Shown: positions 1 through 7,582, numbered from the stretch's first letter. The stretch: DNA of 24,701 bases from Candidatus Thorarchaeota archaeon (GCA_016839605.1 JAEOTX010000088.1:1-24701), one strand, 5' to 3'. Notes: generated from the sequence alone by a model not told the origin. A program made the numbers and translations.

Positions 1-1645
1 TGTTAATGCATGGAATCTGCAGCTCCCAAGCGATTTCTCCTTCAGCTGTGACCTCTGTGAGTATAACTGGGTCGCGAACATTGACGATTAGTCCTTTGCC
101 TGCAAAAGTCCCGAGGGTGTTTCCGTTTGGCAGTCGATCCGCATCTCCTCCTGATTCAGGGAAGTAGTATGTTTCGTTGGAGGGAGTCCAAGACCACACT
201 TCTCTCATAGTACGGGACGTTTCGTTAAACTCAAGCTCCAGAAGCCTTGAGTGGCCCGTTGAGTTTTCTAGGGTCATTGTTGAAGGATTGGATGAGTTGT
301 ACAAATCATTGTCATATATGATGAACCGGTTGTCACTTATCTGTTCTAGACTGTGAGAATGATGAAACAGAGACTCTACCCCGAGCCCATCCTTATTGAG
401 AAGTGTGAATTCGCCATTGCGGCCGGCATCCCACAGAACGGCCTTGGTATTGTAGTCGATCTTGAGAATGGAATCAGTATTGCGGACATTGAGATAGATG
501 ACTTCGTTGTCTTTATCCCACGAAAAACTATTGGAATGCATCCAATCAGCTCCGCCCCTGAAAGTTTCGTTGAGTCCTAGGCTTGTGTGACGAGTAGAAT
601 TGAATGGGAAATACACTCGACCATCCCATTGCCATTCTAATTGTCCAGCCCTGTTGTATTCAGAGATGACATCATATGTCACATTTTTCCCATCCCATAG
701 CTCATCAGAGAGAGCATACTCCAATATCATAAATGTGTCAGTCACTGGATTGTATTCAATCTCGTGATGTCCTGCAGGTACTGGCAGAGTCTCAAGTGTG
801 TCCGTCTTGTAGTTCCACAGCTGCATGGAACCATCTTGCCCGCCCATCATGATTGTAGTTGAGTTGATGAACTCAGTGACTGTATGCGCTGAATTCTCGA
901 GTTGTGCTACCACTGTTCCATACTCGTCTAGAACGTAGACAGAACCAGGCCCAATTTGCGACATATGGTGTTGTCCAAGAAACTCTGGAACAATTGTCAC
1001 TTCAAAGAGGGAGAATACTGTAAGGCCACCCTCCAAGTACTTGTCTCTTTGATTCACTGTGACCAAGAACTCGGGCCCACCTACGCTCCCGGAGTGAATG
1101 CCCATTATTGTTGCACTGACAATCCCAGTTATCTGAGCAATTGTCAGAACTTGACCAAACGGGCCCTCAAACTGCAGTGTTCCCTGCTGAAAGGCTGACA
1201 ACGGTGTTTCATCCTGCCTCATTATATCTGCGAAGGTCTCAAATGACAGATCCACAAGGATTCCATAATCTTGAGGAGGCTCAGTCCCAATGTGAATATC
1301 TATTGAGCCGTCCTCAATGAAGAACCACATGTTGTTCGTGTCCCCTATCTGAAATAGGACTGTCACATCCCAGCCCTCCGTAAGTTCCTGAATCTCGGGA
1401 CTATTGTCGGCTAAGTATTGTGAGAATTCAACAAATTCGGGCATATCCTCCCAAGCTAGAATCTCGCTCTCCAGCTTTTCTTTGAGATCTTCCTGTGCAT
1501 CTCTGATGTACTGGGGTGCATTATCAAGGCTGAATGGTTCAGATTCGCCAGGTGACAGAAGTACATTGAAGACAACATATACCACGGGGATTGTTATCAA
1601 GAGAACGATTGCTAAAACTAAGAGAACCTTGACCCGTCGTTTCAT
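1..1645 (-). CDS. Membrane-anchored arylsulfotransferase (ASST family) with N-terminal SCP2-like domain; 3' end beyond window
   Basis: Not in ORF track. Manual translation from ATG at 1645 stays open for 548 codons to the edge: MKRRVKVLLVLAIVLLITIPVVYVVF (anchor) ... DLSFETFADIMRQDETPLSAFQQGTLQFEGP (SCP2-like) ... GHHEI ... ADWMHSNS ... LNVRN ... FHHSH ... IYDN ... DADRLPNGNTL, matching ASST beta-propeller His/Arg motifs. Confidence 0.88.
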   Translation of the reverse strand, partial: MKRRVKVLLVLAIVLLITIPVVYVVFNVLLSPGESEPFSLDNAPQYIRDAQEDLKEKLESEILAWEDMPEFVEFSQYLADNSPEIQELTEGWDVTVLFQIGDTNNMWFFIEDGSIDIHIGTEPPQDYGILVDLSFETFADIMRQDETPLSAFQQGTLQFEGPFGQVLTIAQITGIVSATIMGIHSGSVGGPEFLVTVNQRDKYLEGGLTVFSLFEVTIVPEFLGQHHMSQIGPGSVYVLDEYGTVVAQLENSAHTVTEFINSTTIMMGGQDGSMQLWNYKTDTLETLPVPAGHHEIEYNPVTDTFMILEYALSDELWDGKNVTYDVISEYNRAGQLEWQWDGRVYFPFNSTRHTSLGLNETFRGGADWMHSNSFSWDKDNEVIYLNVRNTDSILKIDYNTKAVLWDAGRNGEFTLLNKDGLGVESLFHHSHSLEQISDNRFIIYDNDLYNSSNPSTMTLENSTGHSRLLELEFNETSRTMREVWSWTPSNETYYFPESGGDADRLPNGNTLGTFAGKGLIVNVRDPVILTEVTAEGEIAWELQIPCIN

Positions 1646-1668
1646 GCATTTAGCGTCCCTGTCATCTC

Positions 1669-1683
1669 ATTAATAATCTTCTG
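1669..1683 (-). promoter_or_regulatory. Putative BRE/TATA promoter for a leaderless ASST transcript
   Basis: Minus strand reads AGAAGA-TTATTAAT ending 23 nt upstream of the ATG at 1645, typical archaeal spacing. Confidence 0.5.
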
Positions 1684-1718
1684 TGAAGTCAGACCACACA
1701 TAGAACTACCGGTGGGTA

Positions 1719-5232: not shown

Positions 5233-5754
5233 ATGAACAATGGATTCTGTATATGGCTTACAGGTCTCTCTGCTTCTGGAAAAACAACGATAGCACAAGG
5301 ACTTCTGAGGCATTTTGAGAACAATAGGCACATTGAGGCGATGGATGGAGATGAGATTCGAAAAGGTCTGAGCAGAGATCTGGGATTCTCGAAAGAAGAC
5401 CGAAATGAGCACAATCATAGAGTGATTTTCTGTTCCAAGCTTCTTGCCAGAAACGGCGTCATAGTTGTAGTAGCTCTAATATCGCCATACCGAGAAACTC
5501 GAGCTTATGCAAAAGAGGCGATTTCCAATATGATGGAAGTTTTCGTGAAAGCACCCATTGATGTCTGCATTGAACGAGACCCAAAGGGGCTATACAAACG
5601 CGCTCTAGCAGGTGAGATAAAGCAATTCACCGGGATAGATGATCCCTATGAGGAACCTCTCAATGCTGACCTCATTGTCGAAACCCATAAGGAAACCCCT
5701 GAAGAGTCAGTGAACAAGATTATCGAAAGGGCCAAAGCGATGGGATTTCTATAA
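5233..5754 (+). CDS. cysC: Adenylyl-sulfate (APS) kinase
   Basis: P-loop WLTGLSASGKTT, DGD, DLGFSKEDR, ISPYR, RDPKGLY, FTGIDDPYEEP. Confidence 0.98.
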   Translation: MNNGFCIWLTGLSASGKTTIAQGLLRHFENNRHIEAMDGDEIRKGLSRDLGFSKEDRNEHNHRVIFCSKLLARNGVIVVVALISPYRETRAYAKEAISNMMEVFVKAPIDVCIERDPKGLYKRALAGEIKQFTGIDDPYEEPLNADLIVETHKETPEESVNKIIERAKAMGFL

Positions 5755-5816
5755 GGTCATCTCTCTATGGGTGAGCCAGAGTGTTTGTTGCTGCAATTAG
5801 CTAGTAGGTGAGAAAA

Positions 5817-6668
5817 ATGCCTCTTCAAGATGAACTGCTCGATGTTCTTCGAGAAACAGTGATTCCAGGGGGCATTATTCTGAACGCTCTACGAGGGCAA
5901 TTAGACAACCATCCAAAGGATTCTGATCTTCCAACACAAATGGCTGATTCCATGTCTACCGCTCATACTATTGCAGATGATCTTGTTCAGGAGGTTGCAT
6001 TAGAGATACTTCAGCGTCGTGGGCGGGACTTCAGAATTAACGCTGAAGAAGACACACAAAGAACCCAAATTTTCTCTGGCGACATGTCATCATATTGCTA
6101 CCATCTGGACCCTCTAGACGGAACGCTTTCCTTCCTCGAGGGACGAGATGGCTACGCAATTGGTGCAGCCTTTTCAAAAGACCTAGTCTTTCAAGCCTCC
6201 GTTGTCTACTTTCCAGCACAGGACCGTGTATACCTGGCTCAGAGAGGACGGGGGATTAGGGTCGAATCAAGTATTGGTGAAGAATTCGAACTCACTCGCA
6301 AATCACCATCTTCGGACTATTTCATTGAGCGTAGAGTTAAGGACCTGCTTCCCGTGGTGAAGGCAATGCAACTCAAACCCTTGACTACAATGGGAGCTCA
6401 TCATGGAATGGTTTCTATTGCACTGGGCAAGGCGAAAGTCCTTATGTACGGGAGGGCGAGTCCTCATGATTTCGGCATTCCCCAAGTGATAGTAGAGGAG
6501 GCGGGAGGGGTCTGCACGGATATTGCTGGAGCACCAGTTCAGTATGATGCGTCGTTCAACAGAGTGCCTTGCTTTCTGTCATTTTCAAGTGAATCTGACA
6601 AGAAAGAGTTCTTCGAGTACTATGCGAATCTTAATTACGAGACGCGAACGAGGTGGTCCCCGGAATGA
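5817..6668 (+). CDS. Inositol-monophosphatase (FIG) family phosphatase, probably PAP 3'-phosphatase (CysQ-like role)
   Basis: TIAD, AEE, LDPLDGT and HD..P..IVEEAGG motifs; PAP specificity is inferred only from position after sat-cysC. Confidence 0.8.
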   Translation: MPLQDELLDVLRETVIPGGIILNALRGQLDNHPKDSDLPTQMADSMSTAHTIADDLVQEVALEILQRRGRDFRINAEEDTQRTQIFSGDMSSYCYHLDPLDGTLSFLEGRDGYAIGAAFSKDLVFQASVVYFPAQDRVYLAQRGRGIRVESSIGEEFELTRKSPSSDYFIERRVKDLLPVVKAMQLKPLTTMGAHHGMVSIALGKAKVLMYGRASPHDFGIPQVIVEEAGGVCTDIAGAPVQYDASFNRVPCFLSFSSESDKKEFFEYYANLNYETRTRWSPE

Positions 6669-7582
6669 AGATCAAGACTCTCCAGTTTGCAGTAGTCCTT
6701 CTTATGCTAGGTCTATTATTCTCAGCGGCGATGGGACTTCCTGAATCAATTGATGAAGCCAACTATGAGTCTGACAGAAGCAGCATCTCTAGCAGCTTTG
6801 ACTGGGGAGATGCCTATGCAAATGCTTTTGATTCAGACAGATCCCAATGGTATTCTAATGGTGAGAATGCAATAGGGGCACCTGATGGGCAATATGCGCA
6901 GATCTTCATGGACTACAGCAGTGGTTATCTCACATTAGATATGGGGGAACAGGAAGAGATAGTGAATGGACCAGGAGATGACTTCACAGTTATTTCACGA
7001 GGAGGCAACTACTCCATCTTCTTGCAGCCTACCTATGAATCGTCACCGACCCTCCTTGTTCGAGCAAATGGCACACAAAGCTTCGATCTCGATGACATAA
7101 GCATGGACCTAGCACGATATGTTCGAGTAGAGTACTTTATGGGCGATACAGTTGAGCTCGACGCAATTGAAGCTATCAACTATAACGTACCAACCTCAGA
7201 CATCTACGATCCGCAAATCTCCGGGCCAAATGATCTCTGGGTATGGGCAAATCAGAGTGTAGTCCAGCTGGAATGGGAAGCATCTGATGACACGCCCAAC
7301 AACTACACAGTATTGGTCAATGGAAGCGGCATAGAAGATGGTCCTTGGGATGGGTCTGATCTGCTCGTTTCAATCAGCAATCCTGGTGCTGGCATCTGGA
7401 ACGTCACACTGCTTCTCTATGACCTCTCTGATAATTCAGCATCGGATAGCGTGATACTGGAGGTCAGAGCGGTATCCTCGCCAGTCGACCTGATACTCAT
7501 TGGAGGAATCGGTTTCGGTGTGGTCCTCATAGTTGCGGTCATGCTTTACCTCTTCAAATTCAGGTCAAGAGGAACTACCTGA
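6665..7582 (+). CDS. Secreted, C-terminally anchored acidic surface protein
   Basis: Signal peptide MKIKTLQFAVVLLMLGLLFSA, NAIGAPDG...GPGDDF domain, Ig-like module (PQISGPND..WEASD..Y..NG..W..N.TL..D), C-terminal TM plus basic tail; ATGA overlap with upstream stop. Confidence 0.8.
   Translation: MKIKTLQFAVVLLMLGLLFSAAMGLPESIDEANYESDRSSISSSFDWGDAYANAFDSDRSQWYSNGENAIGAPDGQYAQIFMDYSSGYLTLDMGEQEEIVNGPGDDFTVISRGGNYSIFLQPTYESSPTLLVRANGTQSFDLDDISMDLARYVRVEYFMGDTVELDAIEAINYNVPTSDIYDPQISGPNDLWVWANQSVVQLEWEASDDTPNNYTVLVNGSGIEDGPWDGSDLLVSISNPGAGIWNVTLLLYDLSDNSASDSVILEVRAVSSPVDLILIGGIGFGVVLIVAVMLYLFKFRSRGTT

Follow-up and report, generated by a model that had tools for sequence, protein, structure and literature searches.

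The first 7582 positions of a contig from a Candidatus Thorarchaeota archaeon (GCA_016839605.1, JAEOTX010000088.1:1-24701; the whole stretch of 24,701 nucleotides is called the window here) encode two kinds of sulfotransferase beside genes for the synthesis of 3'-phosphoadenosine-5'-phosphosulfate (PAPS). The minus strand carries a membrane-anchored arylsulfotransferase (ASST) containing a sterol-carrier-type (SCP2) domain and a soluble sulfotransferase of the PAPS-dependent type, and the plus strand carries TauE, sat, cysC, an inositol-monophosphatase (IMPase)-family gene and orf7, seven genes in all. The gene identities, the catalytic residues, the predicted topology, and the co-occurrence and linkage of the two sulfotransferases in Asgard archaea are established. 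The best reading of these observations, with a chance of being correct that is about even, is an outward two-step relay in which a lipid-soluble aryl-type carrier would bring sulfate from the soluble enzyme to the ASST. The strongest argument for an intermediate carrier is that an outward enzyme unable to use PAPS repeatedly adjoins PAPS synthesis.

The window is the start of contig C6 in a genome of 3.08 Mb that is 80% complete. Every gene named in a preliminary description of positions 1-7582 was recovered by profile searches in the place and orientation given for it, and the region is laid out as follows.

2..1645, minus strand: SCP2-ASST fusion, cut by the contig end (PF05935 E 1e-25, 91 bits against a cut-off of 24)
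1133..1420, minus strand: SCP2-like (sterol-carrier fold) domain, residues 76-171 of the ASST (PF02036 E 1.6e-5, above cut-off)
1719..2858, minus strand: soluble PAPS-dependent-type sulfotransferase, PF13469, TPST/Stf-like (E 4e-18)
2859..3081, no strand: divergent intergenic region of 223 bp between the sulfotransferase pair and the PAPS cassette
3082..3864, plus strand: TauE/TSUP-family permease (PF01925 E 7e-21; seven hydrophobic segments)
3924..5069, plus strand: sat, ATP sulfurylase (NF003166 512 bits, cut-off 387; TIGR00339 373 bits, cut-off 323)
5081..5230, plus strand: remnant of an NPP/alkaline-phosphatase-superfamily gene (PF01663), from tblastn and translation
5233..5754, plus strand: cysC, adenosine-5'-phosphosulfate (APS) kinase (TIGR00455 218 bits, cut-off 139)
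5808..6668, plus strand: IMPase-family phosphatase (PF00459 E 1e-25; metal-ligand motifs present)
6653..7582, plus strand: orf7, surface protein (likely ATG at 6665, overlapping the phosphatase stop)

A promoter scan of the divergent region used a bacterial-type model and is not informative for an archaeal host. Phylum-wide counts refer to 269 Asgard genomes, each at least 85% complete; in this comparison G-numbers denote genomes, g-numbers genera, f-numbers families and L-numbers loci. Family f21, with 106 genomes, is probably Lokiarchaeia, an unconfirmed assignment, and the Asgard class labels on the records are the depositors' own and sometimes inconsistent.

The Two Sulfotransferases

The ASST stops at residue 548 because of the contig end. 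Its orthologues of about 697 amino acids, 86-87% identical, are full-length and contain an N-terminal hydrophobic helix, the SCP2 domain, a six-bladed ASST propeller, an Ig-like domain and a C-terminal membrane anchor. The profile of the ASST family matches solved SCP2 proteins (best E 6e-5). Residues H370, N372, R388 and H431 align to H356, N358, R374 and H436 of the Escherichia coli enzyme (EcASST), the catalytic residues of which are named in PMC13426309, while the invariant H294 sits, by motif, where H252 does in EcASST. These five residues are conserved in 77-79 of the 79 family sequences. A model of the G062 orthologue (86% identical; predicted local distance difference test score, pLDDT, 90) has Cpz4 as its top structural match (Z 33.5, root-mean-square deviation 2.9 over 326 residues, 17-19% identity) and E. 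coli 3ELQ as the second (Z 30.9), the next being at 20.2. The window gene is thus an ASST by modelled fold and by catalytic residues, and sulfuryl transfer is its predicted activity. About 106 matches cover the fusion at full length. Those that are named are all Asgard, labelled Thor-, Hod-, Hermod-, Odin-, Heimdall-, Sif- and Loki-. Among the matches listed, none of the bacterial ASST loci has an SCP2 domain and one of about 23 has a sulfotransferase nearby, which falls short of proving that the fusion is restricted to Asgard archaea.

The flanking charges, the positions of the helices and an enrichment of N-glycosylation sequons all predict that the ASST faces outward, with SCP2 and propeller on the same, outer side of the membrane. 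The N-terminal hydrophobic helix is found in 76 of the 79 members with a net charge of +3.5 ahead of it, and the C-terminal helix in all 79, followed by a net charge of +3.8. An internal helix is found in one member, and in 78 there is no helix between SCP2 and the propeller. The family has 920 sequons against 474 expected (1.9-fold; 2.4-fold in the propeller), compared with 101 against 86 (1.2) for the soluble sulfotransferase and 15 against 26 (0.6) for Sat. AglB is present. An outward-facing ASST had been proposed in the preliminary description, and the topology prediction gave no indication of a cytoplasmic orientation.

Four surface ASST copies are found in this genome and up to ten in relatives. 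In Thorarchaeota, f8 and f11 the copy number is either 0 or 2-10 per genome, and the proteins fall into size classes of about 540, about 700 (with SCP2) and about 1050 amino acids. Relatives insert arrays of surface ASSTs at the site corresponding to window positions 7594-14141 (epimerase, pyk, eno, apgM and NDP-sugar dehydrogenase). On contig C20 of G007 (L039/L040) seven ASSTs are interleaved with glycolysis genes, a block also present in L043 and L044. A G007 gene that was first taken as a conserved partner of unknown kind turned out to be an alpha/beta hydrolase.

The soluble sulfotransferase is co-oriented with the ASST and lies 73 bp upstream of it; its likely start is the ATG at 2852, giving 377 amino acids. 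In the 5'-phosphosulfate-binding (G64-T71, with R67) and 3'-phosphate-binding (R210, S218) motifs, which align to those of TPST, residues R67, G69, T71, R210 and S218 are invariant among 22 orthologues. The best PDB profile matches are TPST1/2 (E 4e-10), in the motif regions only, and no close characterised homologue was found; a protein 97% identical to it is labelled Candidatus Thorarchaeota. No membrane helix is present in 39 orthologues, in agreement with the soluble, cytoplasmic enzyme proposed earlier, which is soluble by prediction. It is the only PF13469/PF00685 gene found in the genome.

PAPS Synthesis, Probably for Sulfation

PAPS is very probably made for sulfation and not for reduction, because a reductive outlet is missing and because sat and PF13469 genes occur together in the order of this genome, where each of the 20 genomes with sat also has a PF13469 gene, a gene found in 5 of the remaining 67. 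Profile scans found no APS/PAPS or sulfite reductase in the window, as the preliminary description had said, and profile searches of the genome found neither a sulfite-reductase domain nor AprA nor any protein of the CysH type. Since this genome is incomplete, the phylum is the better test; sat is found in 133 of the 269 genomes, the sulfite-reductase domain PF01077 in 3-4. No PF00884 sulfatase was found in the genome. The earlier claim that the locus serves sulfation rather than assimilation is borne out by these searches.

Ordinary sulfate assimilation, with the two sulfotransferases nearby by chance, is already largely refuted and may be regarded as highly improbable. In its favour are the 80% completeness of the genome, the presence of a PF01507 protein, and the fact that the exact gene order is common only to the nearest relative, G070, the two halves being apart in G062 and G063. 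However, the PF01507 protein, the sole strong match, is a 600-amino-acid PUA/Fe-S archaeal type (PRK13795) far below the CysH cut-offs. Three flavoproteins considered as AprA were likewise all far below cut-off, and the linkage recurs in differing gene orders.

On its own, the right half of the locus is a known and ordinary archaeal PAPS-making cassette: sat, cysC, a phosphatase, NPP (as a remnant) and TauE are clustered without a reductase, as in the Thermococcales type. The order TauE-sat-NPP-cysC-phosphatase is seen in relatives, many of which have an intact NPP gene (460 amino acids) between sat and cysC. In the window a start-like stub is fused to the final approximately 37 codons of this gene (tblastn 51% over 37 amino acids, E 4e-11, positions 5114-5224), about 410 codons being gone, and no intact copy was found elsewhere in the genome. 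Because the remaining genes are intact, this collapse suggests that NPP is dispensable for the system. In several genera, belonging to two families, the phosphatase gene lies next to cysC or to sat-cysC, and it is this position, rather than a sequence cut-off, that makes it probably a phosphatase for 3'-phosphoadenosine-5'-phosphate (PAP). The name IMPase/CysQ-like given to it earlier holds for the superfamily (PF00459) but not for CysQ, since the protein is below every NCBIfam cut-off and scores 49 bits with the CysQ model TIGR01331 against the 228.8 needed. In f8 (L056, L089-L091, L093) sat and cysC are fused into a protein of about 580 amino acids, and the slot beside them holds two dissimilar IMPase-family genes, 46% and 21-26% identical to that of the window.

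Distribution and Linkage of the Pair

The SCP2-ASST fusion is found in 28 of the 269 genomes and an orthologue of the soluble sulfotransferase in 74, of which 46 belong to f21. Outside f21, 23 genomes have both genes, 4 + 4 have one only, and 131 have neither. The pairing is also seen when genomes are compared within single genera or families (two separate strata each give 5/1/0/9; stratified chi2 30), although these statistics treat kin as independent and the P values are overstated. In g28 some ASST is present in 14 of 15 genomes, yet the sulfotransferase occurs only with the SCP2 fusion.

In 18 genomes the two genes are immediately adjacent, in one of three arrangements, and in G007, G078, G079 and G141 they lie within one gene of each other. 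They are head-to-tail with the sulfotransferase first in g1 and f11, the latter including a Hodarchaeota-labelled record, in reverse order in G098, divergent in g28, and apart in g12 and G077. Because the linkage survives such rearrangement, the pair quite likely has a shared function, which need not be any particular chemistry. Sequence identities raised the possibility of co-transfer of the pair between g1 and Hodarchaeota, which was set aside because tree support is too weak (55/76, 80/86); the sulfotransferase and ASST trees are broadly congruent, as shared descent alone would give.

The connection to PAPS synthesis is also recurrent. The sat, cysC and sulfotransferase genes form a single run in eight g12 genomes, the whole set of pair and PAPS genes is found in G007, G068, G078 and G079, the fusion adjoins TauE-cysC in G134, and long ASSTs lie directly upstream of a phosphatase and sat-cysC in G103 and G096. 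In all, ASSTs adjoin sat/cysC or lie within about 13 kb of them in G007, G068, G077-G079, G134, G110, G114, G103 and G096. The synteny expected in the preliminary description was thus found: ASST and sulfotransferase are co-conserved, in many cases with linkage to sat/cysC. Even within the genus the seven genes do not keep their exact order, and the locus consists of two or three modules recurring near one another and not of one fixed operon.

The Role of TauE

In the full version of the preliminary description a small carrier, taken here as soluble, is sulfated and exported to the ASST by TauE. In its favour, the TauE family includes sulfite exporters as well as importers of sulfate (PMC5840216). 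The TauE gene of the window is placed between sat and the sulfotransferase, that of G134 is beside the SCP2-ASST, and in some relatives there are two or three copies, of which one could import and another export. The distribution speaks against it. Of the eight g12 genomes with the sat-cysC-sulfotransferase run, seven lack a TauE match at E 1e-25, among them the fusion-bearing G033, G046, G048 and G052, whereas TauE lies beside sat in g11 (including G026 and G027) and G073, all without ASST. Thus TauE travels with sat rather than with the ASST. It also adjoins the same cassette in Pyrococcus, where no sulfotransferase is known (PMC8268124), and the SCP2 domain argues for a hydrophobic carrier. 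TauE as a dedicated exporter is rejected because of this distribution, and the version as a whole is very unlikely. Sulfate import for the PAPS cassette, mentioned as an alternative in the same description, fits the distribution better, is simpler and is the most likely role.

The Surface Protein orf7

The orf7 protein has a signal-like N-terminus, a galactose-binding-type beta-sandwich, an Ig/PKD-like domain and a C-terminal anchor. It shares 35-47% identity with the last 260 residues of ASST paralogues of about 1040 amino acids, being a stand-alone form of the C-terminal module of the long ASSTs, and stand-alone homologues flank the SCP2-ASST in two other Asgard families, f11 and f8. Its model (pLDDT 88) resembles CBM32-like domains (Z about 10-12) and Ig-like domains (Z about 11), a common fold that shows no function; an atlas search returned only unnamed clusters, below 0.8. 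The complex predicted for orf7 and the SCP2-ASST scored 0.18 and was not used either way. As far as the modelled fold goes, orf7 hints at glycan acceptors.

A Proposed Two-Step Relay and Its Alternatives

In the relay that we infer, each chemical step between the two sulfotransferases is deduced, as are the direction, the carrier and the acceptor. TauE would import sulfate, Sat and CysC would make PAPS, and the phosphatase would clear PAP. The soluble sulfotransferase would then move sulfate from PAPS to a membrane-soluble carrier with a good leaving group, perhaps of phenol- or enol-type and possibly prenylated. After the sulfated carrier had reached the outer face, not necessarily through TauE, the outward SCP2-ASST would bind it with the SCP2 domain, form a sulfo-histidine at H431, and pass the sulfate to a surface acceptor, perhaps together with other surface ASSTs, many of which bear an orf7-type glycan-binding-like module. 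SCP2 domains of quinone-pathway proteins bind prenylated aromatics. In G078 and G079 a MenA-like UbiA prenyltransferase gene overlaps the 3' end of the sulfotransferase gene (L016:617-1513, L035:5471-6367); as a clue to a prenylated carrier this is a possible lead only, coming from two genomes of one genus. No UAA-family (PAPS-transporter-like) gene was above cut-off in 60 genomes, a weak negative as the control matched below cut-off only.

Several observations weigh against a relay. The sulfate donors described for ASSTs are aromatic or activated in some other way (PMC13426309), so that a simple ether lipid carrying sulfate would serve poorly as a donor and a phenol- or enol-type group on the carrier would be required. 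At the locus, no gene for carrier synthesis is conserved among the relatives compared, and no flippase or exporter tracks the pair among the genomes compared. In f21 the sulfotransferase occurs without the fusion in 46 of 106 genomes, often among genes for GT2, polysaccharide deacetylase, Glf (UDP-galactopyranose mutase), acetyltransferase and B12 radical-SAM proteins, and because it stands alone in such a glycan-type cluster it must have a use of its own. Among the 27 fusion genomes sat is absent from seven, where completeness would predict 2.3 (P 0.006, rising to 0.05-0.16 on the assumption that such genes are binned less well), and in five of these that were checked the true APS kinase is absent as well. 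Finally, several fairly complete Thorarchaeota genomes (G013, G047 at 95%, G037 at 92%) carry ASSTs yet lack both sat and any PF13469 gene.

The f21 cluster is likely a glycolipid or glycan tailoring locus, and in L060-L064 and L067 it recurs around the sulfotransferase with two B12 radical-SAM genes and LuxE-like genes. Such a setting, and likewise the genomes with ASSTs but without sat or sulfotransferase, would suit two enzymes that share a target without a relay. The soluble enzyme would then make a finished sulfated (glyco)lipid or lipid-linked glycan at the cytoplasmic face of the membrane. The SCP2-ASST would act on that lipid later, on the outside, where it could add, move or remove sulfate in exchange with aryl sulfates or phenols from the environment, and the linkage would reflect a single surface molecule served by both enzymes. 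SCP2 could bind an acceptor as well as a donor, and the Halobacterium N-glycan is sulfated at the dolichol-phosphate stage (PMC11980604). This explanation gives a poor account of ASSTs that lie directly beside sat/cysC with no sulfotransferase between (G077, G134, G103, G096), and of the fact that outside f21 the two genes are present almost one-to-one, and we consider it rather unlikely.

The excess of pair genomes without sat/cysC might instead indicate a relay running inward, in which surface ASSTs take sulfate from aryl sulfates in the environment and load it onto the carrier, and the enzyme in the cytoplasm works in reverse (carrier-sulfate + PAP to PAPS), saving ATP. The multiple surface ASSTs would suit varied donors, and both half-reactions are reversible in principle; for aryl sulfotransferase reactions reversibility is established. 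A PAP-destroying phosphatase is, however, clustered with the genes, and a second PAPS consumer would be needed, none of which was found in the genome. In the single-contig genome G130 neither sat nor a true APS kinase was found, and its SCP2-ASST is truncated near residue 480 (L052:8470-10086), with the sulfotransferase and other ASSTs kept, which looks like joint decay; the other sat-less genomes are 87-95% complete. An inward relay is therefore improbable, as is the role of back-up that the sat-cysC cassette would have in it.

Relationship to Known Systems

Cpz6, Cpz8 and Cpz4 of Streptomyces sp. MK730-62F2 carry out a two-step sulfation of caprazamycin, as described in PMC4257720 and PMC13426309. 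As with Cpz8 and Cpz4, a PAPS-dependent sulfotransferase and a PAPS-independent ASST are genetically paired in the Asgard locus, and Cpz4, the acceptor-side enzyme of that known relay, is the nearest solved structure to the Asgard ASST. Unlike Cpz4, the Asgard ASST has a membrane anchor at each end as well as SCP2 and Ig-like domains, and it is not part of an antibiotic cluster. There is no type III polyketide synthase (PKS) or other carrier-synthesis gene in the window, a PKS not having been sought genome-wide, and the conserved neighbours in relatives belong to other families. If the inference holds, the locus would work like the Cpz8/Cpz4 relay, yet with no PKS and a membrane-bound SCP2 fusion it is no member of that system.

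The AssT of E. coli CFT073 (3ELQ) has the same six-bladed propeller, its His252, His356, Asn358, Arg374 and His436 have equivalents here, and it is extracytoplasmic, as is predicted for the Asgard enzyme. It is, however, a soluble periplasmic dimer with the DsbL/DsbI system and no linked PAPS-dependent enzyme, and it has an N-terminal beta-sandwich where the membrane-bound Asgard ASST has SCP2.

In Pyrococcus yayanosii (PYCH_17520-17560) a regulator, sat, a pAp phosphatase, NPP, APS kinase and TauE are adjacent, with no sulfite reductase and no known sulfotransferase (PMC8268124). The functions are the same as here, with TauE adjacent, no sulfite reductase, and NPP between sat and cysC in relatives of the window. 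The phosphatase is of the DHH family there and the IMPase family here, NPP has collapsed in the window, and both kinds of sulfotransferase are attached here.

In the archaeon Halobacterium salinarum, too, the surface is sulfated by two enzymes, one bound to the membrane and the other soluble; these, Agl30 and Agl31, differ in being alkaline-phosphatase/sulfatase-superfamily proteins that act on a dolichol-linked glycan, neither of them PF13469 nor ASST (PMC11980604). These N-glycan sulfotransferases belong to the same superfamily as the collapsed NPP gene.

Resemblance to Golgi sulfation lies in the TPST-like profile of the soluble enzyme and in the sulfate, which would end on the non-cytoplasmic side. 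In eukaryotes PAPS itself is moved across the membrane and used by membrane-anchored PAPS-dependent enzymes, whereas the Asgard TPST-like enzyme is unanchored and the outer enzyme unrelated. The functional likeness to eukaryotic lumenal sulfation drawn in the preliminary description therefore stands as an analogy of outcome and fails for mechanism.

Other Genes in the Window

Two SBBP beta-propeller surface proteins are encoded in tandem at 16676-21429, the tail of the first containing about four almost identical repeats of about 21 amino acids, rich in His, Pro and Asp, and a small Cys motif. At 23687-24208 there is a gene of the peptide deformylase family (PF01327 E 4e-38), found here in an archaeal genome; to our knowledge archaea do not use formyl-Met initiation.

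Biological Implications

Nothing relevant on ASSTs or sulfotransferases in Asgard archaea was found in the literature searched, which left most subscription papers outside. What is new in this window is the PAPS cassette attached to the pair, together with the test against export by TauE, the left half being the unusual part. Making PAPS for sulfation explains why many Asgard genomes have sat and cysC without a reductase, and these genes should not be read as a sign of sulfate reduction. For most ASSTs neither the natural donor nor the role is known (PMC13426309), and the conserved gene pair names a candidate donor-making enzyme, so that the question can be tested with two recombinant proteins.

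Tentatively, the pair may represent an old Asgard route, extending from Thorarchaeota to Hodarchaeota and other Heimdallarchaeia, by which activated sulfate crosses the membrane on a lipid-soluble carrier that can be recycled and that the SCP2 domain handles, supplying surface ASSTs that add sulfate to glycans or proteins once these have been exported. If true, such a route would be a non-homologous counterpart of Golgi sulfation and would provide a physiological ASST donor. The relay itself, if true, would mean outer-face sulfation without PAPS export in the lineage nearest to eukaryotes.

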